From: Emiliania huxleyi CCMP1516
Taxonomy: Eukaryota
Reading direction: 5' to 3'
Assembly (NCBI RefSeq): GCF_000372725.1
Contig: NW_005201154.1
Coordinates: forward strand, 271,904 to 335,903
Length of the DNA: 64,000 bases
Shown here one piece after another: positions 5,704 to 45,386 of the stretch. The notes under the pieces were generated by a model. It did not search any database. It saw only the letters and a list, made by a program, of their open reading frames with translations, and was not told the origin of the DNA. Position 1 is the stretch's first letter. Every line of letters starts with the position of its first letter. The position numbers were made by a program, and so were the translations under genes.

Positions 5704-6900
5704 ATGCCGGGCGGACCTGCGTGGAGGGAGGCAGCGGAGCGCGCGTCGGCGGGCGGGAGCTGCGAGTTGGCCCTCATCGAACGCGGGCTCGACGACGCCG
5801 ACGTCATCGCACTCGTCGCTTCGCTGCAGCGGGAGGCGGCCGGCTCCGCTCTGACTGGCAGTCGGCCCATCAACAACGTCACGTCGCTCGACCTGCGAGG
5901 GAACGCCATCGGCGACGCCGGCGCGGCCGCCCTCTCCGGCCTGCTGCGCGGCGAGGGATGCGCCATCTGCACCCTCCGACTGTGGGGGAATCGGATCGGC
6001 GACGAGGGTGAGCGAGACACCTCTCCCGCGGCTCCGAACCGTTGCATGTCTCACTGTGTGTGGCGGGGTCGGGGTCACGCGCGTGTGGGACTTCCGACAG
6101 CACACTTCCCTCCCTCTGCGACTGCCTCTTCTGCCGTGTGCTCTCCCGCGTCTCTGAGCTGCCTCTTCTGCCGTCCTCTCCAGGCGGTGCCGCGCTGGTG
6201 TCTGCTCTCGCCCGTCCAAACTCGAGCCTGACCAGCCTCGACCTCGGCAAGCAAGGCCAGCCGGTGGGAGATGCGGTCGCCGCCGCACTCGCCTCCTCGC
6301 TGCCGCGCTGCGCGTGCCGCTGCAGCCGCGAAACCTCTCCCACAGCTTGTCGGATCAGCACCCACAGCGGCCCTGCACAGGTGCGTGCCCGCTGCAGACG
6401 CTTGACCTTCGCTACTGCGGCATGACGGACAAGGGCGCGCTGCCCCTCGCCGCCGCCTTGCCACGGCGCCGCGCCCTCCGGGCCCCTTCGACGAGGACAC
6501 CGCCATCTCTCGGCCAACCTCGGGCCAGCTCGAGCCAGCGAACCTAGGTGCCGCGCCCTCCGCTTCCTCGACGTGCGCTACAACGCGATCGGCGCGACCG
6601 GCGCCACGGCGCTCGCCGTCGCCCTCGGCCGGGCAGACAGCGCGCTGCGTGTCTGGGTCACGTCGAACGCGTACAATGACCAGGACGCCGCCGACCTCTG
6701 ACCTGAGATAGCCCGAGATGGCCCGAGATGACCCGAGATTACAATGACCAGGACGCCGCCGACCTCGCCGCGCTGCTGTCTGTCGACCCGACGACGGCGC
6801 CGCTCGCCGAGAGGGGCGAGATGACTCGAGACCACACGAGAGACCACCCGAGATGACCTGAGGTTAGGCGCCGCTCGCCGAGGGCCAAGAGCGGCTCTGG
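5704..6900 (+). CDS. RNI-like leucine-rich repeat protein, multi-exon, 3' end approximate
   Basis: LRR units LDLRGNAIGDAGAAAL, LRLWGNRIGDEG, LTSLDLG, LDLRYCGMTDKGA, LDVRYNAIGATGA. Introns at about 6008-6183, 6306-6380, 6466-6547 and 6684-6751. Confidence 0.8.
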
Positions 6901-7691
6901 TTTTAGGCTGCGCCCCAGCCGGGCAACAGGCCAGGTAGGGGGGGGCAACCTCGACAGGTTGCCCCTGCGTTCCCCCTCTTTACGTTTGACTAGTGTTCAT
7001 GTCCGCGCCACTGAGCACTGTCTCTCTGGAGTACACATGACAGAGGTAGAGTAACTTGTACGTGGTGACGCGTCGCGACAGTATGTGCCATGCAGTATAG
7101 TCGCAATCATCGCATGTTTAATGTAATGAATGTTTTTATTGTGACGGCTGACGGAGGTCGCGGGGCGCTAGCGGCTAGCCGTAAAGTCTAAGAAGAGGTC
7201 GGCTGCTCGATCGACGAGCAAGCACTGAACCGACCGACCGATCGTGGCGTACGTAGCTAGCGATCGCGCGCCCTGCAAGAGGGGGGGGTCAGCGACGGCC
7301 GACGCGTGCCGGATGGAGTCCGGCCGCGGGTGACTAGGGAAGTTCGCTCAGGATGTGTGGGGCAGCCCCGTTGGCTGAGTGTCTTGTCTTGTGGTTCTGT
7401 GTGTCGCTCCTGTGTGACCGTCACCGCCCGTCCCGCGTCCACCCATACCGCGTTGGTGTCCCAGTCGTTGGTCGGACTGTGTTTCGCCTTCCTATTCGGG
7501 GGGGTCGCGAGTCGCGGGATTCCTGTATCTCCCAATGGAGCACGGCGGCGATATGTGTATGGCGTCGGTTCATTAGAGATAATGAATATCATCCATCCAA
7601 AACATAGAGGATCACAACGTTGCTGTCTGGATCTCGCCGACACCGCCGTCGCGGTCACCCCCGCTGTGGCGGCGCTCTGCGGCGGTGGCCG

Positions 7692-8410: not shown

Positions 8411-9368
8411 ATGTTGACCGCGGAAAAGGGTCGCGGGCCTCGTCGCGGCGCCACGGCGCTCCTTGTGGGCGCAGGCCTCGTCACTGGCGCCGTGCTCTCC
8501 TCCGCCCCTGTCCCCAAGCCGGCAATCATTGAGTACTTTGCGCGCGCGCTTGGCCTCGAGCCGTTTGGCCCGCAGTGCACCTCAAGGATGCCCCCCCTGT
8601 ACGAGCCACACGCAATGCCCAGCATAAACCTCGAGGCCGAGTCGAAAGCGCCCGACTTTAGCCTCTCATCTCTCCACGACGACGGCCTCGTCTCGCTCTC
8701 CGAGCTCCTCAAGACAAAGCCGGTGGTCCTCGAGCTCGGATCCGCCACCTGACCCTTCACGGTGCCGACGCTGCCGTACGTGAGCGAGCTGCGAGCCGAG
8801 TACGGGGACGCGTTCTGGTGCGCCCGAGTCAACGGCGCATGTGTCCAGAGACTGCTCACCCGTGCGCCTCCAACGGCAGGTACGTCTTTGTGTATATCCC
8901 AGAGGTGCACCCGATGTGGGGCGTGCACCCCTACGTGGGCGAGATCCTGCCCGCCGAGCAGGAGTACCCGGGCGGCATCCTCGCCCAGGCGCTGACCATG
9001 GAGGAGCGCAAGGTGGCGGCGAAGACGCTGGAGGCAATGGAGCCCGGCGCCTTTGACTATATCTTGATGGACTCCCTCCCGGCCGTGGGCGAGGAAGGCC
9101 TGGACAAGGCGGGCACCTACAACCCCACCTGGTGCTCGTATGGCACCGCCCCCAACCCGGGGTGGGTGATCTCGATGGACGGAACGGTCCCGCTCGCAGC
9201 AGCTCCAAGCAAGAGAAAGCCGCATTCGGATCAGCTCGTTTATTCCGGTTGCCATAGGTCGAGATCGCCCAGCTCTTCTTTGGGCACGGCATGCCAGATG
9301 TGCCCTTTGAGGAGGGCATGGCGGCACTGAAGGCGGCAATGGATCCGCTCGTCGGTCGGCCCTTTTAG
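8411..9368 (+). CDS. Iodothyronine deiodinase-like selenoprotein (Sec at TGA 8750-8752); exons 8411-8817, 8880-9186, 9258-9368
   Basis: APDFSL...KPVVLELGSAT-TGA-PF matches the deiodinase motif RPLVLNFGS[CA]TUP. Followed by YVFVYIPEVHP (cf. VYIxEAHP), EERKVAA, ILMDS and YGTAPNPGWVI. Both introns are GT-AG and keep frame; TAG at 9366-9368. Confidence 0.88.
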
Positions 9369-9838: not shown

Positions 9839-12800
9839 ATGAGCGCTCATCTCTCTGGCATCGTAGAGCTACTGTCCGCTGACGCTCCGGCGCCATTCGG
9901 GTCCACATCCCCAGTCCTCGGGACAACGGACGGCCGACGCTCTCCCGTCCTCTCTGAGCGCTCCTCAGATCTCGGCGGCGGCTCCTCCAAGCCGGGCTCG
10001 CCACGGCCGCCGCCGCTCAAAGCGCTGGCGCAGCCGCTGCTTGAGCGAGCAGAGGAGGGCCATATCGGGCCGGCGCCCGCCACCACATCCGCAGACGGCG
10101 GAGGCGGCGAGGAGGAGTCTCGCTCAGTCGCGGTGACAAAGGCGCTCATCTACGGGTGCATCAACGCGGTGGTCTGCGCGCCGGTGATGATCTCGTTCGC
10201 GTCCATCATCTTTCGCCACCCCACCTTCCACCGAGACGCCGCCACCTACGCCCGGCTCGTCAAGCTGGTCCTCTTTTCGTCGGCGGTGCATCAGACCGTC
10301 TTTGTGACGACCTCGTCGCTCGTCTTTGCCGTCGGGCAGGTGCAGGACGCGGGCCTCATCTTCCTCTCCTCGATGGCCAACCAGGTCGTCGAGGCGCTCG
10401 AGAAGCGCCAGGCGAGAGTAGCGGAGACGAGACGAGCCGAGGTTAGCCGAGACGACCCGAGGTTAGCCGAGAGGAGCCGAGAGGAGCCGAGAGGAGCCGA
10501 GAGGAGCCGAGAGGAGCCGAGAGGAGCCGAGAGGAGCCGAGATGGGGTGATCGCCACCGCTGTCACAGAGGCGCTCTTCACAGCACCGCCGCGCCACAGG
10601 CTCCGTACGACGAGGTGATCGCCACCGCCCTCGTCGCGCTCGCCTCCTCCACCACCCTGCTCGGCCTCGCCCTCGTGCTGACCGGCAAGCTCCGCCTCGC
10701 CGGGCTGGTGCAGTACCTCCCCCTTCCGGTGGTGGGAGGCTACCTCGCCTACATCGGCCTCTACTGCTTCGAGGCAGGCCTCTCCCTCATGTCTGGCACG
10801 GAGGTCACCTCGGTGGCGCAGATGGTGTCGCTGGCTGGCGGCGCCGGCATCTTGCCCTGCTTGCCCGGCGTTGCCTGCGGCGTCGGCATCATCCTCGCCC
10901 TCCAGCGGTGGCACCACTTCCTCGTCCTCCCCTCCCTCCTCCTCGCCATCCCCGTCCTCTTCTACGCCGCCGCCTTCGCCGCCGGGCTCGACTTGCCTGC
11001 TCTCCGCGCCGCCGGCTACCTGTCCGAGGCGGAGCAGCCGGCGTCGTGCCTCGAGACCTGGTCCTCCTTCCGCCCCTCCCTGGTGCACTGGGACGTGCTG
11101 CCCTCGCTGCTGCCCACGTGGCTCGCAATGTACACGGTCGTCGCCTTCTCGTCCTCTCTCGACGTGGCGGCAATCCAGATGGACATGGGCAAGCAGCTCG
11201 ACTTCAACCACGAGCTCATCACGGTTGGCCTCTCCAACGCTGCCTCGGGCCTCTGCGGAGGCTTCACCGGCTCGTACATCTTCTCGACCACGATCTTCAC
11301 CTACCGAACCGGCACCCGCCTCCGCCTCTGTGGCGCCGTGGTGATCGCCGCCGAGCTACTCCTCTTTGCGTCGCCGGTCACCGTGGGTGCGTACGTGCCG
11401 AAGCTCTTCTTTGGCGCCGTCCTCACCTTCATCGCCGCGGACCTCCTCGTCGACTGGCTCTGGGCCGCGCGCCACAAGGTGCACCCGACCGAGTATGCAA
11501 TCATCCTCCTCACCTTCGGCGCCATCAACTGCTTCGGCCTCGAGGTTGGCATGTGCGGCGGCGTGCTCATCGCCATGTGCCACTTCATCATCGACTACGC
11601 CTCCGCCCCCGTCGTCCGACGGATCGACGTGCGTTCGACTGTGCTGCGCTCCTTTGCGCACTCGCGCGCCCTCGCCGGCGAGCAGACCCGACTCATCTCT
11701 CTCCGCTGCCGCGGGTACATCTTCTTCGGCTCGACTCTCCGCATCATGGAGGACGTCCTCTCCGCCGTCTCCGTGCCGCCGCACCTCGAGCCCACCCTCG
11801 GCAGACCCCCCTCCAAGCAGCGCCCCTCGGCTCAGCCTGCGCCGCCCACCCGCTTCGTCCTCTTCGACTTCGCCGCCGTCACCGGCCTCGACGCGACCGC
11901 CGCCCGCGCGTGCTTCCTCAACCTCACGCGCACCCTCGCGCCGCTCGGGATCGAGGTTGTGTTCGGCGGCCTCCCGGCCGGCGGTCGGATCGCCAAACTC
12001 CTCACCGGGCACGGGATCCTCACTGACTCGCCTTCGCTCGCCTCGGCGCGCCGCGTCTCCGCTGCGGACGAGATCGACCCGAGATCGACACGAGATCGGC
12101 CCGAGATCGACACGAGATCGGCCCGAGATCCACCCCGAGATTGGCCGACGGCTAGGCGCGCCGCTTTTCCGCCGTCGACGAGGCGCTCGAGTACTGCGAG
12201 GAGAAGCTGCTCGAGGAGGTGTCGGGCCGCAGAGCAGCCCCTCTCCTCGGCCACTGGTGCTCTGATCCTCCCGGAGCCTGCTTGCCCTTCCTTAGGCGAC
12301 GCGCAAGCAGCCCATCGGCACGCGCGAGTTCGACTCGTCCCCCTTCGTCGCGCGCGCCGCCACACAGTCCGCGCCCGACTTGGCGCACCTGGCCGCCCTC
12401 GCCGGCGAGCCTGGCGGGGGGGGAGGGGGGGTGGTGGGCGGCGGCAGCGGGGGCAGCTGGCTGGCGAGGTCTGTCCAGCGCGTGCTGGCGCCGCCCGTCG
12501 ACTCGCACGACGCCGGCGCGCTGTGAGCGGCGCCTCTTCATGGCGGGCTGGCTGTGAACAGGCGCCGCTCGTCGACTCGTACCACGCCGGCATGCTGGAC
12601 GGGCTCGCGCCGTACTTTGAGGAGGAGAGCCGCGGGCAGAGGGCCGGTGCAGGACACGTCCAAGACGTGTCCGAGACGTGTCTGCGACACGTCCCGTAGG
12701 AGAGCCACGGGCCGGGCCGGCGAATCTTTGCGGCGGGCGAGGAGGCGGGCGCGCTCTACTTCATCGCCGAGGGGCAGGCGGGGCCGAGCGAGGAGGAGGC

Positions 12801-13229
12801 TCGGGCGAGCTGTGCAGGGCGCCTCCTCACCCCCCCCCCCCCCCCCCCCCCGCGCGCGCCGTACCGCAGGTGGAGCTGTGGGAGGAGCGAGCCTCCGGCA
12901 AGAGAGGCGCCGACAGGGAGCAGGTCCGCATCGCCAGGTACGCGCACGGCGGCATCTTCGGCGAGCTCGACTTCTTCCTGCACAACCGGCGCTCGTTCCG
13001 CGCCGAGGCGGGAGGCGGCGGCACCTCGCTCCTCACCCTGACCCGCGGCAGGCTGCGCGACATGCAGTCCGAGGCGCCTCACCTCGCCGCGGCGCTCGAG
13101 CACGCGCTGCTGCGCTACCTCTGCTTCCAGGTCAACGCCAAGCTCGGGCTCGTCGACGGCGTGAGCGACGTGACAGACCCGTTTGCGCGGGCCTCGCAGC
13201 CCCTCTCGACGAGGGCAAATCCCCCCTGA
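9839..13229 (+). CDS. SulP/SLC26-family transporter with STAS and C-terminal cNMP-binding domain (yeast Vsb1/YGR125W-like architecture), multi-exon
   Basis: AVGQVQDAGLIF, LVQYLPLPVVGGYLAYIG, FGSTL...FDFAAVTGLDATA (STAS), FSAVDEALEYCEEKLL, RRIFAAGEEAGALYFIAEG...GGIFGELDF (cNMP). Introns at 10412-10599, 12046-12155, 12488-12561, 12625-12699 and others. Confidence 0.9.
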
Positions 13230-21866: not shown

Positions 21867-24359
21867 GTGTCCTCTCGAGCGCTGGACTGGTGGACTAGAG
21901 CCCGTCTAGATACGTCTCGCCGCCTTCTAGATAATCCTTCTAGAGCGCCTCGCCCCTCCTCGGAGGCCGGCTGTGGCGAGATCTGGGGAGATCCGGGGAG
22001 ATCTGGGGAGATATGCCCCTCCTCGGAGGCCGACCCGCACAGCGAGCTGCCGCCTCCCCAGCCGCCCCCTCGCGCCCCTCGCGCCCCTCCTCCTCCCCGC
22101 CCCCCTCCTCCCCCTCCTCCTCCTCCTCCCCCTCCTCCGCCGCCGCCGCCGCCGCCGCCGCCGCAGCGCCGCGCGCGCTTCTCCGGGCCACGGAAGAGGG
22201 GGCGCCCGAGATTGCCCGAGATTGCCCGAGATTCGGCGAGGTTGGGGAGGGAGGAGCTGCGCGCAGCGAGAGGCGCACGGCCGCCCCTGCGCGGGGGAAG
22301 AGGTATGGGGGAGATTGGGGAGGCATGGGGAGGGACGGGGAGAGATGGGAGAGATATTGGGGGAGGGAGGTATGATCTGTGGGGGAGGTATGGGGGAGGT
22401 ATGATCTGGGGGAGGTCGCACGTGCGCACCTACGCGCGGGGGAGAGTGATCTGGGGAGAGTGATCTGGGGAGTGTGATCGGGGGAGAGTGATCTGGGGAG
22501 AGTGATCGGGGGAGTGTGCGCCCCCCCCCGGCGGCACGCTGAGAACCGCGGCTGCACCTTCGGGTGGATCTCGGCTGCACCTCGGCGCACCTCGGCTAGA
22601 CCTCGGCTGCATCTCGGCTAGATCTCGGCTGCATCTCGGCTAGATCTCGGCTAGACCCTCGCCGTCCCAGATCAGTGCGACCACAACCCGCGCCGTCTCG
22701 ACGCAACGCCCCGCCGCCGCGCCGCCGCCGCCCTCTGCGCGCGCCTCCCCCTCCTCCTCCGGCCGCCCCCTCGCACCGGCCCTCGCCTTGCGCCGCTGCA
22801 GCCGATGGAAGCGGTTGCGCACGGAGTGCTCCGACCGCCCGCGCAGCTGGCTCGCGACCGCCGCCCACCTGGCGAAGAAGGTATATGGTTCCGGGGAGAG
22901 ATGTGGGGGAGATATGGGTGGAGACATGGGGAGATATGGGTGGAGACATGGGGAGATATGGGTGGAGACATGGGGAGATATGGGTGGAGACATTGGGAGA
23001 TAGGGGGGGAGGAGCAGCCCACCTGGTGGAGAAGGGACTGTGTGAGGGGCAGCGACGGGCTACTACCTACTTCCATTCTACGATGGGCAGGAACAAGCGA
23101 TGCAGAGTGACTGAGAGGGCTGCACGCCCACCTGGTGAAGAAGGAAAGGGCGCACTGCACTCGACGGCAACTCACTCGGGGCTCGCAGACTCGCGACCGC
23201 CGCCCAGCCTGATCACTCGTCCCTCCGCCGGTCAACTCACCCGTCGGCTGCTGAGGCAGGGGAGCGCGCTCTGACTCGCGGCCGGCCGCCCGCCTGAGGA
23301 GGACGAGTGCATCACGATCAGATAGATGCGTTGCCTTGACCGCGTCTCGTCGAGGCTCACTCTCGCCGCCCGCCCGCACACACCTGCTCTCGCGGTCTCC
23401 TGCCGCCGCCGGGCCTGCGGCGCCGCTCGCGCGGGCGAGCTCCTGTTCACAGCTGGAGGTGTGAAGAGACGCTGCGCACAGCTCGCCTACTCCGAAGTCG
23501 GCGAGCTCCAGCAAAGCGGCATCCTCCTCCGCGGACCTTGGGCGTGGGGGACGAGGTCAGATCTGGGGACAGATCTGGGGACAGGTGGCTGACTAGGGGC
23601 CACCTTCCTGGTGGGCAGGGCTCCAGTGATGTGGTAGTGCTGCAGCGGTAGATGAGTGGAGAAGCAGTGCTGCAGCGGTAGATGAGTGTGAAGTGGTGCA
23701 GCGGCGGTAGATGAGTGTGAAGTGCTGCAGCAGCGGTAGATGAGTGGAGAAGTAGAACTTGAACAAATCTCCTCCGCGGACCAAAACGAAGCCTGGTGCC
23801 GCACGGGCGCCTCGGCATCCTCGCCGGCCGCCTCCTCGGTCTGATGAGCTGCTGCCGCCTTGGCCGCCTTGGCCGCCGCCTCGGCCGCCGCCGCGGTCTC
23901 GGCCTTCGCCGCCGCCGCCGCGTCCTCCGCACTTGCCGCCGTGTCCGCCGCCACCTCTTTTGCGGCTCGCGCCACATTCGCTGCCAGCGCCGCCGCCGCG
24001 TCGGCCGCCGCCGCCGAGGGCGCCGCGGCAGCGGCAGCTGCTGCCTTAGCGGCTGCTTTCGCACACTCGTCTGCAAAAGCTCGCTGGCAGAAGGTGCTAT
24101 CCGGCGGCTCGTACCGCCACGGAACCGTCGGGCAGAGGGCTCGCCCGAACGCTCCCGCACTCTCCGGCGCCGGCGCGAGGCTGCTCTCTCGGAACACGGC
24201 CTCCGATTCGCCACGGTGCTTGCGCCACGCCTCTGGAACGGATTTGGCGATATGCCCGTCCGGGCCGTGGAAAACATTGTACGCTCGAGTCAGGCCCTGT
24301 CGTTGCCGCAGCTCGAAGCTCCAACCCGGCGGAAGGCTCGACAGGGTGTGGGCGCTCAT
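21867..24359 (-). CDS. MBD-like + Myb/SANT domain protein (N-terminal part, multi-exon, 3' boundary uncertain)
   Basis: LPPGWSFELRQRQG...YNVFHGPDGHIAKSVPEA (MBD-like). Myb repeat split by introns: WSAEEDAALLELA...WAAVASQLRGRSEHSVRNRFHRL. Confidence 0.7.
23630..23752. repeat. Intronic minisatellite, ~28 bp unit x4
   Basis: Variants of gtgctgcagcggtagatgagtg..gaag. Confidence 0.85.
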
Positions 24360-25382: not shown

Positions 25383-25384
<2 letters not shown>

Positions 25385-29802: not shown

Positions 29803-30135
29803 AAATAAATAAATAAAAACGGACACCTCTCTACTGTGAGATGGGTAAAAAGGAACAGGCCCCCGCCCTTGCGATCTTTGTGCAGGGTTCTTTGTGGGTG
29901 TGGTCGGCGACTAGCCGGGGTCGTCCTCCCGATGGGGGACTAGCACTAGCCGTCTTCCACATGGTCCCTCGGGTCCCTGCTGCTCCTAATCTCTTCGTAC
30001 ATCCTCCTGCTGATCTCCGCAAAGTCCTGCTCCCTCCCTCGTCTCGCCCTGCGCGTCTGCTCCGCCTCACCGTCTTCTGCCCTGCGTCGTCTGGCGACGG
30101 GTCCTCCATAGTCGGTCGAGGTCGCCGCCCTCCTC
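29803..30135 (-). mobile_element. 5'-truncated LINE copy, 7 bp TSD
   Basis: (TTTA)n tail; nearly identical to 54858-55186; gcgcggc at 29796-29802 and 30136-30142. Confidence 0.85.
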
Positions 30136-31653: not shown

Positions 31654-33079
31654 TCACTGCCCCGGCGCCCACTCCTCGACCTTCTTGGGCACCAACTGGT
31701 TCGACAGGTCCTCCCCATGGCCTAGGCAGCCGTGGGCGCCCTGACCCCACGAAAGGACGGCGCCGCTGGCGGTGACGGCGAGGCTGTGCATGGCCTCAGC
31801 CGAGACAGCGACGACGCACTGACCAGCGAAGGCCTCGATCTTCTTGGGCAGCGGTTGCTCCTGCGCGTCGCCGTGGCCCAGCTTGCCATAGGCTCCATTG
31901 CCCCAGCTCAGGACGGTGCCGTCGGCGGTGAGGGCGAGGTTGTGGCCGGCTCCAGCAGACACAGCGATGACGCGCCGCCCAGCCAAGGCCTCGACCTTCT
32001 TCGGCAGCAGCTGGTTCTGCCCGTCGCCGTGGCCCAACCGGCCGTCGCCTCCCAAGCCCCAGCTCCAGACGGCGCCGTCGGCGGCGACGGCGAGGCTGTG
32101 GAATCCTCCAGCCAACACGGCGACGACGCGCTGCCCCCCCAACGCCTCGACCTTCTTCGGCAGCAGCTGGGACTGCCCGTCGCCGTGGCCCAGCCGGCCA
32201 AAGTATCCATCGCCCCAACTCCAGACGCTGCCGTCGGCGGCGAGGGCGAGGCTGTGGTACGCTCCAGCCGACACAGCGACGACACGCTGCCCGGCGAAGG
32301 CCTCAACCTTCTTTGGCAGCAGCTGGTCCTGCGCGTCGCCGTGGCCCAATCGGCCATCACCTCCATAGCCCCAGCTCCAGACGGCGCCGCTGCTGGTGAG
32401 GGCGAGGCTGTGGTGGAGTCCAGCCGACACAGCGACGACGCGCCGGCCCGCCAAGGCCTCCATCTTCTTCGGCTGCAGCTGGATCCCCCCGTCGCCGTGG
32501 CCCAACTGTCCCCCACCTCCACCGCCCCAGCTCCAGACGGCGCCGTCGGCGGTGATTGCGAGGTTGTGGCAGTCTCCAGCCGACACGCTCACGGCACGCT
32601 CGTCGCCCAGCGTAGAGGAGAGGCGGGTCGGTGTGTTGAGCCCCGTCACGCCCTCGCCGTGGCCGAGTAGCCCTGGGCTGAACCACGGCGCAGAGCCGCA
32701 CGACGAGAGCCGCCCCTCGCCGTCAATGAAGACGCTGTGCTGTCGGCCGCTGCCCTCGCCGGCAGGTTGGACTCGCGCAGCAGCGCAGAATAGCACAGCC
32801 ACCGCACGGCGCAGCTCTCGTCCTCTGGCTGCGCTGGCAGCTCGAAGCCGCGCTCTTGCGCCCACAAGCGGATGCCCTGCTCCGCGCGAGCGAGTGAAAG
32901 AGCAGCGAGACGGCCGCGGCGCGAGCGATGTCGACGGGGCTGTCGCAGCGAGAGAGGGCGCGCTCGAGGAGCTCCCTGGGGAGGTCGAGGAGGCGGGCGG
33001 GCGGCGGCGCGTCTGGCGAGGGAGCGGCGGCGGCGGCGGAGGCGAGGGTGCGCGAGCGGCGGCGCGGCGGGGTGGACAT
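31654..33079 (-). pseudogene. F-box + RCC1-repeat gene with two frameshifts
   Basis: Homology to the 37979 paralog is spread over all three frames (ORFs 32723..33118, 32646..33203, 31654..32865). About 7 HSLA..ADGAVWSWG...GQLGHGD repeats. Confidence 0.8.
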
Positions 33080-33110
33080 CGCGAAGAAAAGAATTTTCAA
33101 GCCTCTCTCG

Positions 33111-33146: not shown

Positions 33147-33749
33147 TAACACAGGTACACCACGGGAGCCGCCTAAACGACTCCTGCGAGGACGGCGAGG
33201 CACTTAGCTCCGTGCACTCGACCGCCCCCGCCACAGGCAAGCTCATTCACAATCTGCTCTGCGATTGCCGTGTGAAGAACGACTGAGATACGCTGCTTCT
33301 GCAGCCCCAGCCAGCGCTTGGTGGCCAAGTCACCTCATCGAGGTGCTGGGCCCGCGTCAGCTTGTTCTGCAGCACGTTCGCCGCCATCCAGAGGATCTCG
33401 CCAACCAACCCCCTTCCCGAACCCACCGAAAAACAATTCAGCAATTTCTCGCACGACGCTAGGCACGGGACTGGCGCGAGGAAAAGTAAATTACGCGCTA
33501 GGCTAGACATCGTATGGCGGATAAAAAACGCGTACGCGCGAGAAATGGGTATCAGGCGGTACGTCGCTGGCTTTGCGGGGCTGCAAATAGAAATTTATAA
33601 TAGACACCCGCTCGGTGCAGCCCCTGCCAAGAATCCAGCCCGGCAGCCCGAGGCGAGAGATATGCTGGCCGAGAGCCGAACGCCGATGTACAATCTCGCG
33701 CTCTCTCTGCGCGAGCGTGAGCTCTTCGGTGCAACCTTGATCAACCGGC

Positions 33750-36330
33750 TTACCGGCGGCCGGTGTGGAAGAAGTGAAGCACCAGGGCGAAGCAGGCTTG
33801 GAAGAAGAGGCCAAAGCCAATGAGGGCGCCGAGGTCGCGACCGACGTCCACCTTGTCGAAGGAGTAGAACTTGAGCAGCTCGTGCCCGGAGGCAAAGGGC
33901 GCGCTGTCGTCGAACTCCTTGATCGGCTCGAACTCGTTGTACATGAAGACGCGGTACGAGTACGAGTGGAAGCCGATGTGGTACACCCAAATGAACCAGG
34001 GCGGGATGTCGTCCTTGACCTAGCAGGAGTCGATAGCAACCCCAGTTCCAAAGATCGCCCCCCCCCACACACACACACGCCCGAGCGACTAGCACAAGCG
34101 ACGTGACCTTGAAGGCGCCCTCGCACAGCATGAAGAAGCCATAGACGCCCGCGCCGAGAGCGATGCCGATGATGTAATGCGGCACCAGCGCGCCTATGTG
34201 TGTTGGTGCCGAGGTAACAGGCAGCACCGCCCGGCGTCAACAGAGCAGGCAAACAGAAGCCGCGCGCCAACGAGGCACATGAACCCCTCGGCGGCGACGA
34301 GCGAGCAGAAGAGCGCGGCGAAGAAGGTGCCGAAGCCGTTCAAGCCGGCCAGCGGCACCACGCACGCCGTCGACAGGATCGAGATGAGGGCGAGGCCGGG
34401 CAGCGAGCAGAGGAAGTTGGCCGAGACCCAAGAGACGACGCCGTAGGCGCCGTTGGATCGCTCGCGAAGGAACGAGGAGCGCTCCATCATGAAGAAGGGG
34501 AGGACGGCGACCGACATGAAGACGAGAAAGGCGGCGATGTAGAAGAGCATCGAGGTGCGCGAGTTGATGGACGAGTAGTCGTACTCGTCGCCTAATCTCG
34601 GGGTCGTCTCGGGTCGTCTCGAGTCATCTCGAGTTGAGACGGCGCGCAGTCGTGCTCGTCGCCGAGGCCGATGTACATCAGGCCGATCATCAAGCAGAGC
34701 ATGACGTACATGACGAGCCGCACCCAGTAGATGCCTATTGCACGAAATCAGTACGAGTGAACGGAAAGTCGATGAGTGACGACGAGTCGCGCCCGGCAGT
34801 GCCCGGATTCTTGGCGTTGTTGAGGCTGAAGCGGTGGCAGAGCGTCAAGAAGGAGCTGAGCGGGGACACCTGTTAGCACTCACTTGACGAGTCATGACCG
34901 CTAATGACGCCACGAAGGAGCTGAGCGAGGGCACCTTCGAGCTGCCGGCCGGCGCCTTCTTGCTGCCTGCCATCGCCTCGGCGACCTATTCACAGCTTGA
35001 GGTGTGAAGAGGCGCTGTTCACAGTCTTGCTGCTTGCCATCGCCTCGGCGACCTTCGCGACGACCGTGGCGCGCTCTGCGCTGTCGCCGTACTTGAGCAC
35101 GAGCGCCGCGTCGTAGCGCTCGGGGAAGTCCGAGTTGACCTGTTCACAGCTCGAGGTGTGAAGAGACGCTCTTCACAGTCTGAAGTTCACGGGGAAGTCC
35201 GAGTTGACCAGCTGGAGCATGAAGTCGGCCGGGTTGTACATCGGCGGACACGCGTGGCCGTGAGCGGCAAGGTAGGAGGGGATCTCGGCGGCCTTGCCGT
35301 AGAAGACGGTGTGGCCGCCTGCGGGAAGGTTCCGAGAAGGCTCCCCGCGAGTCTCCGTGTGAAGATGCCTTGCCACAGAGCGTGGCCGCCTAATCACACA
35401 ATTCAAGCCGCTCCGTCATTGATTGGCGGTCTCTCCTCGCCGCCGAAGGGCGGTGTGGCCGCCCGAGAGCAGCAGGACGTTGTCAAAGAGGGCCCAGAGC
35501 TCGCTGCTCGGCTGGTGGATGGTGAGCGCAATGGCGTGCCCGGCGCGCGCCATCGCCTTGAGCCGCTGCATCACGCCAAAGGCGGAGGCCGAGTCGAGGC
35601 CTGACGTGGGCTCGTCGAGGAGGAGGATGGCGGGCCGCTTGACCAGCTCCACCGCCAGCGAGAGGCGGCGCCTGTGGGACGTCTCGGAAGTGTCGTGGAC
35701 GTGTCCTGGACATGACCAGCTCCACCAGCGAGCCACGGCGCCGCTGCCCCCCGCTCAGTCCCTTGCGGAAGATGTCGCCGACGATGGTGTCGCGGCACGA
35801 CTCGAGGCCGACGAGCCTCAGCGTCTCCTCCTCGAGTGCGCGCGTCTCCTCGGCGCTGGCGCCGTAGCCTGCGCAATGGGGGTGGTGGTGAGCTCTGGAT
35901 GAGCGTGGCGACAGGGACGCGGCATTTGAGCTGGGAGCGCGCCGTGGTAGAAGCGGACGGCGAATCGCAGCGACTCTGCAACGGTGAATACGCCGAGGAG
36001 CGAGTCCTCTTGACCAACGTAAGAGAGCACGCGGCTGCGCTGTGCGAACGAGACTTGCGTGTGGCCGTTGAAGGAGACGGTGCCGCTGAGCTTGTGCGAT
36101 CTGGTCCGGCCAGACACCGCATCGAGCAGAGTAGTCTTGCCACAACCCGAGGGTCCCATCACGGCGAGCATGTCGCCCGAGCTGAGCATGCCGTCTGTCG
36201 GCTGGAGCACGGTCTTGCCCTTTACCGTCACGCTGAGGCTGGACCACTCGACGCTGGTGGCACTCGCGATCGTGCTGCTGGTGCGTTCGAGCGGGCGAAC
36301 GCCGGCCTCGGGGTCCATTTCCATCGCCAT
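33750..36330 (-). CDS. ABCG (White-family) half transporter, many introns
   Basis: Walker [18 protein letters not shown], signature LSGGQRRR, Walker [28 protein letters not shown]2 membrane domain with [14 protein letters not shown]. Confidence 0.93.
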
Positions 36331-37380: not shown

Positions 37381-37978
37381 CTCGATGAAACGGACGGAAA
37401 AGCGCGTTTGCGACGGCTCGCCGGAGAGCATGCATGGAGCGGCCGGTGCGCCGCCGCAGCGCACCGATGGAGCCTGCGTCGCGGTTCAATCCACTGACGC
37501 CGCAGCACCGCGACACATTCTCCAAGCACGGCCTCTGGCATTGTGATTGCACAGAGAGCGAGCAATAGGCGCCAAAAGCACAGATCTGTGTGCAGTGGCT
37601 CTCCATGTCGGTCGCGCCCAGCGAGAGGACAACCACGGGCCTCGGATGCTCGCCCGGACGCGAGCCCACCGTGCGAGTTGCGGACCCGGAGGCGGCCGGC
37701 CCAGCTCACCCCCAGAGAGGCATGCCCAGGGTCAGGCAAAAAAGGGGGGGTGTTTTCCGTCCGTCCAATCTAGCTCATCTCTCTCTCACAGGGGAACGGG
37801 AGCGGGTGGGAGCGCATCGCGACACGGAGGGGGGCTGGGCAGGGTTCACCCACACGACAGGGTCCCAGGGATTCCCCTCTCGTATAGGACAGGTTGCACC
37901 CGGCCACGGGGGCAGGCGCGGGCCTCCTACTGGGTAGGTCCTCAGCAATGTAGGGGCAGGCGTTTTTCTTTTCTCGCG

Positions 37979-39388
37979 ATGTCCACCCCGCCGCGCCGCC
38001 GCTCGCGCCGCCTCGCCTCCGCCGCCACCGCCGCTCCCTCGCCACGCACGCCGCCGCCCGCCCGCCTCCTCGACCTCCCCAGGGAGCTCCTCGAGCGCGC
38101 CCTCTCTCGCTGCGACCCCGCCGACATCGCTCGCGCCGCGGCCGTCTCGCTCCTCTTTCACTCGCTCGCGGAGCAGGGCATCCGCTTGTGGGCGCAAGAG
38201 CGCGGCTTCGAGCTGCCGGCGCAGCCAGAGAGTGAGAGCTGCGCTGTGCGGTGGCTGTGCTATTCGGCGCTGCTGTGCGAGTCCAACCCGCCTGCGAGGG
38301 CGGCAGCAGGAAAGCAGCACAGCGTCTTCATTGACGGCGAGGGGCGGCTCTCATTGTGCGGCAGTGAGGCAGGCTTTCCAGGGCTACTCGGTCACGGCGA
38401 GGGCGTGACGCGGCTCAACAAGCCGACCCGCCTCCCATCGCTGGGTGAGCGTGTCGTGAGCGTGTCGGCTGGTGTCGGCCATAGCCTCGCCCTGACCGCC
38501 GACGGCGCTGTCTGGAGCTGGGGCCATGGAGCCTGGGGCCAGCTGGGCCACGGTGACGCGCAGGAGCAGTGGCAGCCCAAGAAGCTCGAGGCCTTTGCTG
38601 GACAGCGCGTCGTCGCTTTGTCGGCTGGAGTTGGCCACAGCCTCGCCATCACCGCCGACGGGGCTGTCTGGAGCTGGGGCGTTGGAGACTTTGGCAACTT
38701 GGGCCACGGCGACGAGCAGCGGCAGCTGCTGCCAACGAAGGTCGAGTTCTTGGCGGGGCGGTCCGTCGTTGCCGTGTCTGCTGGATCCCGCCACAGCCTC
38801 GCCCTCACCGCCGACGGCGCCGTCTGGAGCTGGGGCTGGGGATGGGAAGGCAAGCTGGGCCACGGCGACGAGCAGGACCAGCTGCTGCCCAAGAAGGTCG
38901 AGGCCTTGACTGACCAGCGCGTCATCACCGTGGCGGCTGGAGGGGCTCACAGCCTCGCCATCACTGCCGACGGCAGCGTCTGGAGCTGGGGCAGTGGAGC
39001 CTTCGGCCAGTTGGGCCACGGCGACCGGTAGAGCCAGCCGCTGCCCGAGAAGGTCGAGGCCTTGGCTGGCCAGCGCGTCGTCGCTGTGTCGGCTGGAATT
39101 GCCCACAGCCTCGCCATCACCGCCGACGAGGCCGTCTGGAGCTGGGGCGGTGGAGGCTTAGGCAAGCTGGGCCACGGCGACACGCAGTACCAGCCGCTGC
39201 CCAAGAAGGTCGAGGGCTTTCCTGGCCATCACATCGTCGCTGTCTCGGCGGGAGTCTACCACAGCCTCGCCCTCACCGCCGACGGCGCTGTCTGGAGCTG
39301 GGGCGGTGGAGCCTCCGGCAGTCTGGGCCACGGCGAGGACCTGTCGAACCAGCTGCTGCCCAAGAAGGTCGAGGAGCAGGGAGGGTGA
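37979..39388 (+). pseudogene. F-box + RCC1-repeat gene with one in-frame TAG (39029-39031)
   Basis: RLLDLPRELLERALSRCD (F-box-like) followed by RCC1 repeats. ORFs 37547..39031 and 39062..39388 share a frame. Confidence 0.82.
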
Positions 39389-40022
39389 GCGCGAAGGCCC
39401 AAGGTATGAGTTCTGACGTGTTATGAGTCGTCTCGGTCCTTTTGATCAACAAAACACGGTCGGGAGAATAGGGAGAGGGGTGTTGTGTTCTCTAAGCCCC
39501 TAAAAAGGCCCTATAGACGCGTGGCCGTGGGCGTGTGAGCTGTTGAGGCTTTGAGCGAGCTCGGAAGCGAGCATAAGTATTACTCTAGCTGGAGCTTTGC
39601 ATATGTCGATTGAGCCATCTCGAGGATGGGGCGCGCGGGTTCACCCCCTGTAGACCACCCAGCTGGTCGTGACTTCCCACGAATAGCCAGCTCCACGGCC
39701 AATGTTTACCGCCATATCGAGAGCAAGGCCGGGCCTACTTGATATGAGATCAGCAAACTTATGTTTTGCAGCGAAGGAAGGAGAACGACATAGGCAGAGC
39801 GACAGGGAGAGAGAAGAGAGAGAGAACGTACGTACAGGAACGCCTGGGATTGGAGGATCCGCAGCGGATCCCAATCGATCGCAACGAGTTTCTGCCTTGC
39901 GGCTGCGACGTGCGTGCTTGCGTCCCAGAGTGCCCTCGCGCAGAACCAACGCATCTCCCACAACGCATCAGCACGTGCTCGAGTCCCTACGAATATCGAG
40001 TCGGTCGCCCATTTGCCGCGGC

Positions 40023-41266
40023 ATGGAAACCCTCACAAAGGAGAACGGCGCGGCTGGCGCTCGGAAGAGCTTGAGGGCGTGCAGGCGCACCTCAGTCATC
40101 ATCGAACCTCACGCAGCACCGAATCGGCCCCTCGGGCTGGCCATTGGAGTCGGAGGAATGCTCTTGGGGACGCCAGATGCTATGGCACTTCGCTTTCAGG
40201 AGCAATACGGTGGCACCGATGAGACCATTGGGTTCTGGCGCTTCATCGTGTCTGCCGCTCTCACACTCGTTTTTGGTATCGTGACAGCTGGCGGAGTATC
40301 GAAGCTATTCTCCACCCTTGCTTCATCAGCTTGCGGTCTGGCGGTTGCCTCTGCGCTAGGCATCTGCACCCAGTCTGGCTTCTACTACTCGCTAATGCTT
40401 CTCGACCCAGCCAAGGCATTCCTCTTCATCTCGCTCTCCCCTGTCTGGGCTGCCATTCAGGGCAAGCTGCTCTTGGACGACGACCTACCCCAACGAACCG
40501 TCGTGACCATGATTGTCGCCCTGATTTCCGTCCTCGTCGCGATGGTACCGGACCTCTTGAGGCTTTTCGAGCATGGCTGGGAGGCTGCAGACGGCTCGGA
40601 GCGAGTACTGTTGCTGATCCCCTTCATGACGGGATTTGCGATGGCCACGCTCACATCATGGGCGCGCTACTGCGGGACAAGATGGCCCGAGACCGACCTA
40701 ACCACAACCGGATTCTTCGCATCCCTCGGCAGCTGCGCCCTCTTCTACGCTTCCCTTCACCGCCGCGATGGGCCCGAAATCGACTTGACAGGCGGGCTTC
40801 AGCTTGGCTTTTGGGGATGGCTCATCCTCAGCAAGGCTGGGACCACCGCGTTCGATGTCTCTATGTTTCACGCCGCACGACACCTCAAGGGGGCTGAGGT
40901 ATGGGCTGCTAGGACGAAAGCATCGCGGCGCCGGCCACCCCGATTTCTCTCGCTCCTGATAGGTTGAGCTGATTATGCTCGGCGAGGTGCGAGAACCGCG
41001 TTTGAGGCCGAGTCAAGCCCCTGCCCACTCCCTACGCTCTAAGAAACCCTCAACACCGCAGGCAGCCTTTTCGCCGCTGTGGGTCTTCTTGGCGTTCGGG
41101 GAGACGCCTACAGCTTGGACGCTTGCCGCCCTGGGGCTGTTGTTACTAGCTCTCGCTGGTCACGAGGTGTGTTACGCGCCCGTCTGCGCGCGGGTTGGGG
41201 TGGTGCGTGACGGAGGCTGAACGCCCTGCGCTGTAGGTTGCGGGAATGCACGCTCAACAGGCATGA
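40023..41266 (+). CDS. EamA/DMT-family membrane transporter
   Basis: Multiple TM helices; FISLSPVWAAIQGKLLL; HLKGAE|VELIMLGE|AAFSPLWVFLAFGETP. GT-AG introns near 40900, 40988 and 41167. Confidence 0.82.
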
Positions 41267-41460: not shown

Positions 41461-41594
41461 TCCCCCATCGGGAGGACGACCCCGGCTAGTCGCCGACCAC
41501 ACCCACAAAGAACCCTGCACAAAGATCGCAAGGGCGGGGACCTGTTCCTTTTTACCCATCTCCTAGTAGAGGTGTCCGTTTTATTTATTTATTT
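41461..41594 (+). mobile_element. 5'-truncated LINE copy, 11 bp TSD
   Basis: Same 3' end as the 29803 and 54858 copies; aggagagcaga at 41450-41460 and 41595-41605. Confidence 0.88.
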
Positions 41595-41791
41595 AGGAGA
41601 GCAGAGCATGCCGGCCGCGAGGCGCGAGCGCCGCGCCGGCTTCATTCTCACCTCAAGAATATTTGCACTTTATGCTTCATTTTTATGCAAGCACCCATGA
41701 TTTAAGTTGAGAAAAAAAAGAACGCGCGCTGGCCGCTGCGGCCTGCGCGGGCACCAGCGACGGCAGCTGCCGCCGGACGGTACGCGCTCTC

Positions 41792-44700
41792 TCAGCACAC
41801 CCACCAGCGGCCGCCGCCCGACGGCGCCTCCTCCGGCGGCATGGCCGCCGAACAGACCACCGCGCGCTGCCCCGTCGCCCCTCCGCCGCTGGCGCTGCGG
41901 CCCACACGCACGCGCGCGGGCACAGCCCGCATGTCGGCCGCCCTGCCGCGCACGCCCCCAGACGGCGAGCCGGCGTCGACGGTCACCGGCGGCGTGGAGA
42001 GGAGGTGTGCGTGGTCCGCCCAGACGTGGAGCCCCGCCCCGAGCCCGTACCGAGAGCCGTCGGCGTCCCAGACCTAGCGAAGCCACAGCCGGGAGCCAGC
42101 CGAGAGTCAGCCCCGTGGCAGAGCAGCGTGCCTTCTCGAGCGCTCGTTGAGAGACAGGGGGGGGAGATGGCTGTTGTGCATCGTGTTTTGCATCGCGATG
42201 CAGCATCTGCGCTCTCGCGTACCACGTCGAGCGCGAAGCCCTTGACACGAGCGCCCGTGACGGCCCAGTGGCGCAGCGTCGTGAGCGGACGCACCTCGAA
42301 TGAATTCGTAGAGGCTTATGGTTGGTGACTCCACTCGCCCCCCCCCCCCCGTGGCTGCCCGGTGGCGCGACGTCGTGGGCGGAGGCACCTCGACGAACTC
42401 GGCCCCTGCGCGGAGGCCCGCGACGCCTCCGAGCACGAGGTCGGTGAAGGAGGAGTGGAAGTAGTGGTCGCCTGCTCACCAGTCGACCAGCCGGGAGTCA
42501 CTAGCCAGAGCGGTCGGCCAAGGAGGAGTGGAAGTGGCGGTCGCCACGCTCGGGTCATCTCGGGCCATCTCGGCTCATCTCGGCTCATCTCGGCTCATCT
42601 CGGAAGTAGCGGTCGCCACGCTTCGCGAGCCAGTCGCGCCCGTTGGAGGCTCCAAGCCCGCCCGCGCCCGCCCAAGGCCGCACGCCGTGCAGCTTGCGCC
42701 TCGTGATCCAGTAGCCGTCGTCGGGAGATATGCGGAGATATGGGGAGATGTGCAGCTTGCGCCTCGTGATCCAGTAGCCGTCGTCGGGAGATATGGGGAG
42801 ATATGGGGAGATGTGCAGCTTGCGCCTCGTGATCCAGTAGCCGCCGTCGGGAGATAGGGGGAGATATGGGGAGATATGGGGAGATATGCAGCTTGCGCCT
42901 CGTGATTCAGTAGCCGCCGTCGGGAGATAGGGGGAGATATGGGGAGATATGGGGAGATATGCAGCTTGCGCCTCGTGATTCAGTAGCCGCCGTCGGGAGA
43001 TAGGGGGAGATATGGGGAGATATGGGGAGATATGCAGCTTGCGCCTCGTGATCCAGTAGCCGTCCTCGGGGTGCAAGTCCTCGTCCACGTGCGGAGGCGC
43101 CCTCCCCTCGGCACGCGCGCGGGTGTGCGCGCGTGCGTAGGTCAGCATCAGCGCCTCCCATGCGGCGATGCCGGCGTGGGGCTGCGGCGGGTGAGTCTGC
43201 AGCAGCTCCGCGAGCGCGGTGGCGGCCTTGGACACCTCAAACGGCCACACGGGGCCGTTCCAGTTGCACTGTGCGGCGTTGGAGAAGTTGTAGCATTGCG
43301 AGCGCCGCTCGGTCGTCCTCGGACCCCACGGGGAGGCGAAGCCCTTCGCGTCGTGCAGCTGCGCCCTGAGGAGGAGGAAGAATCACACGGTCAACCAGCT
43401 AGCGATGGAGGAGGCCCTTCGGGTCCTGCAGCTGCGACCAGGCGGTGGCGAACTTGCGCGACCGGCCGGCTGGGGCGGCGGGGACCGCGCCGAAGTACCA
43501 CGGCGAAGTGAGTGCCGACAGCTCGCGGACCGGGACCAGCTTGCCGACCTGGGGTAGTCGTGAATGGTGTGAGTCGACAAGGGGCCTCCGGCTCGCGGGC
43601 AGGGGACAGAGCTTTGCCGACCGGCCACCCTCGCTCCGGCGGGCAGGCGCGTCCCCGCGGGCAGGCGAGGCAGCCTATTCACAGCTCTTCTGCTCACACC
43701 TCTCCTGTTCACAGCTCCTCGCGGGCAGGCGAGGCAGCCGAAGTAGGTCTGCACGGACTGGCTGTTGCCCTTGGTCGGCGAGTCTTTCCTGCCGCCACGG
43801 CCAAGTGCGTGAACGGCGTCTCTTCACAGCCGCTGCCCCCTCGGCCGGCGACCCCTTCCTGCGGTACCACGTGATCTCGGCGTGCAGCGATTTGGGCGGC
43901 GGCTGCGCGAGGGTGGTGAAGAAGGAGAGGTCCTATTCCGATTCCATTCTCGTTATGATTCGGGCGGGGCGGTTGCGCGAGGGTGTTTGACAAGGGGAGG
44001 TCCTCCGACCATAGCCGCTCCAGCACCACCCCCCTCCACCTCGCGGCCTCCTCCTCAAACTGCGCCGACAGCGTTGCGTTGCCCGCGGCGGCGGCGGCGG
44101 CGGCGATGGCCGTCGCTTCGGCGAACATGACAGCGTTGATGGTGGGGCGACAACCTACCATTACGCCTCATTTCTCGGTCGCGTCTGGCTCCATCGCTAC
44201 TGACCGCGTCGACGGTGGGGGCGGCACGCCGTCGAGCGTCGCCGAGTTCTCTTGCCCGTCGGCGTGGCAGCTCTGGAACATGCAGCGCGCGCCTGGGGGG
44301 GTGGGGTGGGGGGGGGTGGGGGGGGGGGGGGCAGGCTCGGCCAGCCTCGGGCTCGGGCGATCTCGCAGGTCTGGAGTGTGCGGCGCGCGCCCGTGTGGTA
44401 GTGGGTGCGCACCCAGTCGCGGTAGTTTGCCTCGAGTGCGGGCAGCAGCTCGTGCGCTAGCGAGCCGGCCGCCCCTGAGTCACGGTGGCGAGCTCATCAC
44501 GCTTGATTGCGTCTTTTTCTTTTTTTCTAGCCTCGAGCCGGGCGGACCAGGCCGCGCATCGACGAGCAGCGAGTGCCTCCACACCGAGTGGGCGGGCCTA
44601 GAGGGGCGGAGGCCGAACACTCTGTGGTTTCGTCAGTCGTCACGAGCGACTTACCTGCAGGGGTGAGCCAGCCAAAAGGTGTACTGCTTCCTCCAGCCGG

Positions 44701-45386
44701 CGCCGCGCAGCCAGAAGCGCGCGTAGTCGCCCGCGTACCTGGGAACAGCGTCTATTCACACCGCCTGGCTGTGAACAGGCCCTCTCCGCGCGTAGTCGCC
44801 CGCGTACCTAACAATATATTATTCTTCATAAAGAGCTGCGCGTATTGATTAATGATTCGCGCAGTCGCCCGCGCACCGGCCGTCCTTGACCCAGCGAGCC
44901 TCCGCAAAGTGGTGTCCAGCCGGGCAGACGATGGTGTTGGCGGGCCCGCTCCACGGAACCTGTGAACCAGGCAGCGAGTCGAAGAGGAGTCTCACGTTCC
45001 TTCTTGCGGAGCTTTCCTGGCGGCGTCTCGGAATCGTCTCGGAAGTGTCTCGGAAGTGTCTCGGAAGTCACGACACCTTCTTGAGGAACTCGGTGATGAC
45101 GTGGCAGCCCTTTGGGTCGCAGCCGGGTGTGCGCTGGCTCTTCGGCGCGCGAGCGAGGTGTAGGTGGAAGACGCGCCTGTCGACGGCGCGTCACAGAGTG
45201 AAGGTGGGGCGCAACCGAGAGATGACGTGCGAGGTGGAGGCGGCGCCAGCGGTACCAGTAGGCGGTGTTGAGGTCCTCGTCAGAGCTGTGGAAATAGGGG
45301 ACGTGCTGCTCCACCCACGCCCGCGACTCGTTTAGGACAAAAGCGAAGGGCGCAGTCTCGATTTGCGGAGGTCGCAGGCGCGGCGA

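Follow-up and report, generated by a model that had tools for sequence, protein, structure and literature searches.

Introns of Emiliania huxleyi whose 5′ end is a decaying repeat of the following exon start

Introduction

The origin of new spliceosomal introns has long been debated, and in most gains the traces of the event have been lost. In Emiliania huxleyi 84–87% of intron positions have no counterpart in other groups (PMC3174169 supplement). The window analysed here is a 64,000-nucleotide stretch of the E. huxleyi CCMP1516 genome (contig NW_005201154.1), in which a first-pass annotation had noticed ten introns whose 5′ end copies the start of the next exon. It had read them as ongoing intron gain by staggered cut and fill-in. 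The question raised by this locus is what these copies, here called echoes, represent, and whether the introns that contain them arose together with them.

Extent of the echo signal

The direct repeat is real in all ten flagged intervals, four on the forward and six on the reverse strand, each of which is a G..AG segment whose start recurs immediately after the segment end. To describe the signal we used the 32 introns of three genes, encoding an ABCG transporter, an SLC26/SulP-cNMP protein and an MGH1-like glycoside hydrolase (Table 1). A significant 5′ echo is present in 24 of these introns, and in 9 of the 14 with RNA-fixed borders, while the mirror pattern, a copy of the upstream exon end, is found in 3 of the 32. 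Ungapped identity over positions 3–20 was 0.62 against 0.31 in permutations (p<5e-5) for all 32 introns, including four (10412, 12219, 12488 and 43789) whose borders were not chosen blind to the echo. For the 14 RNA-fixed introns it was 0.60 against 0.32 (p<5e-5), so that chance is ruled out, and mirror identity in this set was at background (0.27 versus 0.26). Base composition and donor consensus were rejected as causes by the permutations and by nulls built from G|G sites. The aligned echoes have a median length of 28 nt (range 12–41), longer than first estimated. The proposal that echoes occur in many genes holds for these three, but they are not universal, as only 5 of 19 provisional introns in genes that had not been flagged contain one. 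In several E. huxleyi genes, the first 28 or so bases of most introns are a decaying repeat of the start of the following exon.

Table 1. Echo introns and the genes containing them, with positions counted from the first base of the window.
Feature	Position	Strand	Description
LRR gene, four echo introns	6307–6380, 6466–6547, 6684–6751, 6797–6867 (6307..6867)	+	provisional borders
SLC26/SulP-cNMP gene	9839..13229	+	6 introns, 4 with strong echo
Internal echo, SLC26/SulP-cNMP gene	10412–10599	+	
Strong-echo introns, SLC26/SulP-cNMP gene	12046–12155, 12488–12561, 12625–12699, 12778–12869	+	
Putative Myb-like gene (23443..23781), two echo introns	23537–23781, 23443–23508	-	provisional; label from motif, no Pfam match
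ABCG transporter gene	33749..36330	-	10 introns, 7 with strong echo; RNA joints
Echo intron	34592..34662	-	echo 26/33, GC donor, 10-mer repeat filler; RNA
Echo intron	34870..34934	-	echo 23/27, unique filler; RNA
Young echo intron	34986..35052	-	27/28 copy of next exon start, directly followed by 39-nt hairpin filler; RNA
Echo intron	35140..35208	-	19 perfect bases, 12 poor matches, then hairpin filler; RNA
Stacked intron	35319..35462	-	two echo + filler units, 73 and 71 nt, no intervening exon
MGH1-like glycoside hydrolase gene	41790..45695	-	16 introns, 13 with strong echo; PF22422 in homologues
Stacked intron	42472..42616	-	added unit duplicates 21-nt stretch across donor
Array of ~5.5 units	42700..43044	-	unit is 32-nt exon copy + 10-mer filler
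Echo intron	43675..43738	-	echo 22/23, diverged hairpin filler; protein-homology junction
Stacked intron	44739..44876	-	first unit eroded echo, AT-rich filler, AG; second unit perfect echo, inverted hairpin filler, AG
Eight foreign bases past inverted hairpin's own AG	44779..44786	+	start GC, exon-start-like
Echo intron, dual-specificity phosphatase gene	53405..53475	+	GA donor, 11-mer filler; not flagged in first pass
Mirror cases, DnaJ gene	57464..58257	-	upstream-exon-end copies within introns, 10-mer fillers between

These are spliceosomal introns: they have G[T/C/A]..AG ends, 15 joints across two genes are spliced in RNA contigs, and their removal leaves three full open reading frames intact. 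The spliced ABCG product is identical to P0001 at 595 of 596 residues. The earlier claim that removing each flagged segment restores the protein was borne out to different degrees. RNA contigs (X11, partly X10) skip the introns at 34592–34662, 34870–34934, 34986–35052 and 35140–35208 at the lengths given, and 12046–12155, 12625–12699 and 43675–43738 ranked top in a junction search that used protein homology only. The spliced product of 12488–12561 aligns to a homologous protein but was not top in that search, and for 6466–6547 and 23537–23781 the sole evidence is the reading frame.

The introns are also present in genomic-type contigs of five other samples, which together with RNA splicing refutes an assembly artefact, one of the possibilities that the first-pass annotation had named as fatal to its own reading. 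Among the joints displayed, no intron-less allele was found in the five genomic-type runs, and the mean echo age is approximately 0.18 substitutions per site; neither lends support to gain that is still ongoing. No haptophyte orthologue was seen among 80 distant loci from a metagenome scan with the ABCG alignment (1/64 parts).

Donor sites and decay of the echo

The donor dinucleotide is the same as the exon-start dinucleotide in 27 of the 32 introns, and all three exons starting with GA are paired with GA donors. The suggestion that the donor is whatever G-x starts the duplicated sequence is correct for these introns but goes too far: GG donors do not occur, the two exons that start with GG are paired with GT donors, and three further donors differ from their exon. 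A G precedes every one of the 32 donors and follows every one of the 32 acceptors. An A at position -2 occurs in 8/24 against 82/446 (p=0.06), so targeting to an AG|G sequence is not established. The human-type branch motif is enriched in the intron ends (14/32 against 53/279, p=0.003) and is lacking in 18 of the 32.

Exon and echo differ at 94 positions, of which 77 would alter the protein if read in the exon, so the decaying copy is the one in the intron, as expected of a target duplication. Within the echoes AT>GC changes (53/181) exceed GC>AT changes (18/407), a direction that agrees with the GC-biased mutation spectrum measured for E. huxleyi (PMC7486954). The decay is neutral with an AT-to-GC bias. 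The echoes supply a neutral substitution spectrum and could allow the evolution of newborn donors to be read directly, with the exon as the ancestral and the echo as the derived state. GC donors have been reported at 56–65% in E. huxleyi and ascribed to GC content (PMC4028052); an origin from duplicated exon starts would account for the unusual GC and GA donors and offers a mechanistic cause for this proportion.

Fillers and stacked units

Behind the echo lies a filler, which belongs to one of several unrelated families: a 39-nt hairpin element, 10–11-mer repeats or unique sequence. The same kind of echo accompanies all of them. Echo and filler form a unit of approximately 70 nt, and 20 of the 32 introns are 64–77 nt long. 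Where the echo is nearly perfect (27/28) it switches abruptly to the multicopy filler, and in this intron (34986–35052) the repeat permits an alternative G..AG cut at a distance of 9 nt. At its ends the hairpin has inverted repeats of 4 nt and direct repeats of 10 nt; its 5′ end is fairly fixed, and it shows very high summed depth from other loci. Without its first two bases it is a 37-nt GT..AG string of 51–59% GC. Among the contigs displayed, twelve from other loci contain pairs of hairpins 27–40 bases apart (median 29.5). The hairpin and 11-mer fillers produce similar introns at unrelated loci, as introners do, and the unique fillers do not. Fillers match other introns, with overlaps of 1–3 nt at some junctions.

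The units stack. In at least five introns (35319, 44739, 44960, 10412 and 58997) a unit sits at an acceptor that was already there. The intron at 35319–35462 restores the reading frame when removed whole, and its 3′ unit is skipped alone in one X11 contig, the short side of which is only 20 nt; that at 44739–44876 is excised in RNA as a single 138-nt piece. Such units resemble recursive, zero-length-exon splicing in having an internal AG|G site. Some duplications span a donor or repeat the end of an exon, as would be expected of a general insertion process filtered by selection.

Origin of the echo introns

The echoes are probably duplications born of insertion, and it is likely that such target-duplicating insertions created these introns within the last few million years. 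We think it reasonably probable, taking the explanation as a whole, that each duplication was made when filler was inserted at a staggered break, giving a new intron that spliced cleanly. Two nicks about 27–34 bp apart would open the target, repair synthesis would copy 35–45 bases from elsewhere in the genome, in most cases from the 3′ portion of a different intron, and the two ends would be filled in. An exonic insertion would survive only if the duplication begins G|G[C/T/A] and serves as donor, the filler ends in AG and serves as acceptor, and the unit is at least about 63 nt. The intron copy would then decay neutrally, and further insertions at the borders and unequal exchange between copies would stack units. 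We infer these steps; what was observed is that the introns are spliced, that the repeat exists and is polarised, which dinucleotides serve as donors, that the intron copy decays neutrally, and that the fillers fall into families and the units stack.

Break repair as the route of insertion is a tentative choice. Staggered breaks are known to give rise to both tandem duplications and templated insertions (PMC11081867). One case supports a DNA template, the inverted hairpin filler with eight extra bases at 44779..44786, which we infer were likely brought along from the source locus. Counting against break repair, the fairly fixed ends of the hairpin resemble a mobile element more than random filler. 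The duplication length of 27–34 bp is accounted for by nothing that we tested.

We favour break repair with templated filler over target-primed reverse transcription (TPRT), in which a non-LTR retrotransposon enzyme acting in trans would nick the target, copy short RNAs, such as the 3′ ends of introns or a very small SINE-like RNA, and leave a long duplication, with selection filtering the products in the same way. Long duplications of variable length are typical of some non-LTR clades, and the duplications here do vary in length. Seven of the eight hairpin copies in the window lie in the sense orientation, so that the acceptor is formed by the hairpin's 3′ end, and 82% of published E. huxleyi introners are genic, where 40% would be expected (PMC9860276 supplement). 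However, no poly(A) tail was found at the junctions, although the 10-mer arrays could be tails, both the repeat fillers and the hairpin occur in either orientation, and the single inverted hairpin continues past its AG for eight bases that would be missing from an excised intron RNA. A Pfam scan of 74 of the 130 open reading frames in the window gave no match to a reverse transcriptase or transposase, which weighs little since the enzyme can lie elsewhere. We consider TPRT unlikely.

It is improbable that the introns are old and have been renewed, with the echo written later by conversion from the adjoining exon or cDNA, or with a new unit added at an existing acceptor and the old one lost between two repeats. 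The units at existing acceptors would fit this, as would the ability of repeats to delete or double precisely: the array at 42700–43044 corresponds in P0074 to a single 21-residue unit. Against this, most E. huxleyi intron positions are lineage-specific, and stacking at an acceptor in four of about 28 events can be explained without targeting, given that there are 32 acceptors to 446 G|G sites in exons and that insertions at acceptors survive more easily. In addition, a synonymous exon variant at 35134 (X5, X10), a single case, is not listed in the echo copy.

Tandem duplication of a 65–75 nt exon segment of the type described by Rogers, with the 3′ part later overwritten by repeats or intron conversion, is an established route (PMC3443670). 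It shares with 42700–43044 the derivation of both splice sites from duplicated sequence, and duplicated sequence lies on both sides of the junction there and in 6684–6751 and 42295–42388. As a general origin it is very improbable, as near-perfect echoes break off sharply after about 28 nt, the RNA-fixed introns show only background mirror identity, and most echo introns hold foreign filler, with no full-length duplicate found.

A cut-and-paste MITE or introner with an ordinary short duplication, suggested by the 4-nt inverted ends of the hairpin, its two orientations and the listing of E. huxleyi among species with introners, is scarcely credible, as is an assembly artefact of a structure that independent samples and RNA reproduce: the echoes are 3–10 times longer than the reported 3–9 bp, accompany unrelated fillers, and come with no terminal inverted repeats of at least 6 nt in the hairpin and none at all in other fillers.

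Comparison with known systems

Introners (Gozashti 2022, PMC9860276) and the introner-like elements (ILEs) of Polarella and Symbiodinium (bioRxiv 2020.10.14.339549) share with echo introns a donor derived from the duplicated exon start and an acceptor supplied by the inserted sequence, as well as the use of GC/GA donors, a bias towards genes and insertion in either orientation. Their duplications are reported to be 3–9 bp and family-specific, whereas echoes are about 28 bp, variable and common to unrelated fillers. Of the published E. huxleyi families, three average 37 nt with 54–57% GC and two average 70 nt, and one from 2025 is annotated as "10bp terminal direct repeats, co-opt 5' carry 3'" (PMC9860276 Table 6; PMC12130899 dataset). 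Target duplication in these families is scored "?", "N", NA, 2 or 4, compared with the echo of about 28 nt, and RNA gives introns of 67 and 69 nt here rather than 37. Matched by length and GC, the published 37-nt introners are probably only the filler half. We found no long target duplication at E. huxleyi introns in the published literature.

Neointrons of Daphnia pulex (PMC4202315) also have direct repeats of adjoining exon bases, unrelated fillers and recurrent events per site, and are attributed to staggered double-strand breaks. Their repeats are 4–12 bp in 33 cases and their presence is polymorphic, while the echoes measure about 28 bp, lie preferentially at the 5′ end and are fixed in the samples examined. 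Stwintrons (PMC8469720) resemble the stacked units in their internal AG|G site and the removal of one unit alone; they differ in lacking a flanking duplication, the units here being 70 nt and each opening with an exon copy.

Because an echo intron preserves the sequence into which it was inserted, a single genome could provide dates for thousands of gains. It is possible, although we hold this with some doubt, that such duplicate-and-fill, combining ~30-bp duplications with acceptor ends from existing introns, rebuilt much of the intron complement within a few million years. With acceptor ends copied from existing introns, introns would seed introns without being transposons; the 70-nt units could stack and be spliced in steps, their own repeats would permit exact doubling or deletion, and every such intron would contain a built-in clock.

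Pattern scans for the hairpin gave one match in viral contigs, outside any echo-intron context, and 12 in prokaryote genomes, which we took as chance; those for the 10-mer repeats gave 0 and 1. E. huxleyi gene models that contain introns of 37 nt or a short peptide in duplicate are probably mis-annotated.

Echoes at intron 5' ends

Copies of the next exon's start at the 5' ends of introns, here called echoes, were analysed in 32 introns of three genes chosen by the first-pass annotation, which encode an ABCG protein, an MGH1-like glycoside hydrolase and an SLC26/SulP protein. The borders are fixed by RNA for 14 introns and come from a homology-only junction search for most of the others, with the exception of 10412, 12219, 12488 and 43789, where frame, an existing model or the echo itself guided the choice. 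With other G|G sites as the null, a significant 5' echo (p<=0.013) is present in 24 of the 32 introns and in 9 of the 14 with RNA-fixed borders (11/14 at p<=0.05), and in 3/32 the end of the intron matches the end of the exon before it (the mirror pattern, p<=0.05). A comparison of intron start with next exon like the one that had been proposed, run on these 32 introns, gave an identity over positions 3-20 of 0.62 versus 0.31 permuted (p<5e-5), and the RNA set gave 0.60 versus 0.32 (p<5e-5).

With borders taken from frame only, echoes are present in 6 of 8 introns of two other flagged genes but pass in only 5 of 19 introns of unflagged genes, which is why the genome-wide share is placed only broadly, probably at anything from a quarter to three quarters. 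A window scan blind to orientation yielded 36 direct repeats at spacings of 50-130 nt, whereas four shuffles gave 0-3; of the 36, 23 have spacings of 63-74 nt and several lie within tandem arrays.

The introns are genomic

The window has a GC content of 65% and two N gaps. The ABCG product, spliced by coordinates, is identical at 595 of 596 residues to an E. huxleyi CCMP1516 protein (NCBI), and an SLC26 exon matches a second CCMP1516 protein at 100%. All three genes yield full ORFs that align to homologues once their 32 introns are removed. The ten echo intervals originally listed are all correct, six of them in minus-strand genes. In RNA contigs ten segments of the ABCG gene and five of the glycoside hydrolase gene are missing, and all of these can be placed on G[T/C]..AG borders. 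Contigs of five other sequencing runs (X2, X4, X5, X8 and X9), the nature of which is guessed or unrecorded, read through the introns, and no intron skip or empty site is seen in them among the joints listed. The structure is therefore genomic and common to samples, which disposes of the concern over an assembly artefact.

Anatomy of the units

Each unit is composed of an echo followed by filler. Aligned echoes are 12-41 nt long (median 28) and 20 of the 32 introns measure 64-77 nt. A G precedes the donor and starts the next exon in all 32. The donor had been proposed to be whatever G-x begins the duplicated exon; this holds in 27/32 introns, including all three GA cases, but fails for GG, since GG is never a donor (0/32) and the two exons that begin with GG follow introns with GT donors. 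Fillers comprise a 39-40-nt hairpin family, arrays of 10-11-mers and unique sequence. The hairpin has eight copies, all at intron 3' ends and one inverted, and a profile search seeded by those same eight found no further full copy. Contigs from other loci carry pairs of hairpins with 27-40 bases between them (median 29.5 for 12 of 33 rows, among the matches listed), and we take the intervening bases to be echoes that separate stacked units, units with no exon between them. One intron (53020-53235) holds a 10-mer array followed by its own reverse complement and could form a long hairpin.

Stacked, displaced and read-through structures in the window
Feature	Position	Observation
Stacked intron, two units with unrelated fillers	44739-44876	Excised as one 138-nt piece (RNA)
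Stacked intron, double	35319-35462	One RNA contig skips only the 3' unit; short side 20 nt
Copy of spliced junction inside intron	44960-45076	
Internal echoes	10412-10599 and 58997-59346	66-68 nt upstream of acceptor
Duplication straddling donor	42530/42602	
Duplication straddling acceptor	23017/23126	
Duplication copying exon end	58138/58231	
Intron read-through, X5	34058-35133	
Intron read-through, X4	34099-35051	
Intron read-through, X2/X8/X9	about 44345-45050	

The lone skip of a 3' unit (35319-35389) is a possible intermediate of stepwise, recursive-like splicing, a weak case because the short side is so brief. At 42700-43044 the array comprises about 5.5 units versus one in P0074, a protein from another sample, which fits unequal exchange between repeats. 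At 43789-43858 (minus strand) the echo-based border produces a five-residue insertion relative to four homologues; homology instead favours an intron of 85 nt whose donor is GG.

Decay and age of the echoes

Echo and exon show 94 differences, 77 of which would alter the protein; the intron copy is therefore the drifting one. Among 181 A/T sites 53 have become G/C in the echoes, and among 407 G/C sites 18 have become A/T, the same direction as the measured GC-biased mutation spectrum, although the implied equilibrium of 0.87 exceeds the published 0.72 (PMC7486954). At the published rate, the mean echo divergence of 0.18 takes about 3e8 divisions; with 365-100 divisions assumed per year this amounts to 0.9-3.2 million years, an age that alignment trimming biases low. 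As first described, some echoes are perfect and others barely visible, so that the process forming them is recent and prolonged and may still be active. At 12046-12075 the window echo encodes Ser, where P0081, an ORF of another sample that is left unspliced, has Pro; this implies that a T-to-C change segregates in the echo.

Comparison with known introners and possible mechanism

Introners are known to recruit a donor from the target duplication, the duplications reported for them being 3-9 bp (PMC9860276; bioRxiv 2020.10.14.339549). Repeats are 3-5 nt in Amoebophrya (PMC7789003) and 4-12 bp in Daphnia (PMC4202315); PMC3443670, PMC8379373 and PMC8469720 are further comparison literature. For E. 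huxleyi, a 2022 survey lists five small introner families of 37 or 70 nt with target duplications entered as '?' or 'N' (PMC9860276), and a 2025 survey gives three families (PMC12130899). Trimmed by two bases, the hairpin becomes a 37-nt GT..AG sequence with matching GC; judging by length and GC, the published families are probably the hairpin filler half. In the full texts searched, mostly outside subscription journals, haptophyte introns are nowhere described as carrying long duplications of an exon start. The echo is a real and strong feature, apparently undescribed; it represents a variant form of intron gain by duplication that stands out for the length of the duplication, the diversity of the fillers and how prevalent it is locally.

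The mixed fillers, orientations and placements indicate one general process, in which insertion with duplication of about 30 bp would be followed by a splicing filter. In E. huxleyi donors are reported as flexible and acceptors as strict (PMC4028052), so that an exon-like 5' end is tolerated and the acceptor must come from filler, which alone would yield the 5' polarity of the echoes. As the enzymatic route we tentatively entertain break repair, a close to even prospect, while target-primed reverse transcription is rather unlikely. Duplications of 27-34 bp resemble, speculatively, the patch size of nucleotide excision. That the intron positions are new is taken from the literature, where 84-87% of 353 E. 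huxleyi positions are unshared with other groups (PMC3174169; one haptophyte, on a very long branch). A metagenome scan with the ABCG alignment, covering 1 of 64 parts, gave no haptophyte orthologue.

Patchiness and other features of the window

A 1.4-kb exon without introns (10600-12045) adjoins five introns within 830 bases, and the TauD, dynamin-like and RCC1 genes are apparently intron-free; intron gain therefore appears patchy. The EamA gene (40899-41236) has lower GC and a significant echo in none of its three introns, which are possibly an older class. Three F-box-like/RCC1-repeat paralogues with 156-nt repeats lie at 31657-33096, 37970-39390 and 50956-52200, and a stop or frameshift apparently disrupts the copies near 39030 and 51390. 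Another repeat, dispersed and with the same ends in each copy, is present three times (29800-30120, 41465-41600 and 54860-55200), and no Pfam family matches its ORF at 54999-56171. At 8750-8755 (plus strand) a thioredoxin-like reading frame has a ..GSAT motif with an in-frame TGA directly after it; this is possibly a selenocysteine codon, given a resemblance to deiodinase-like selenoproteins.
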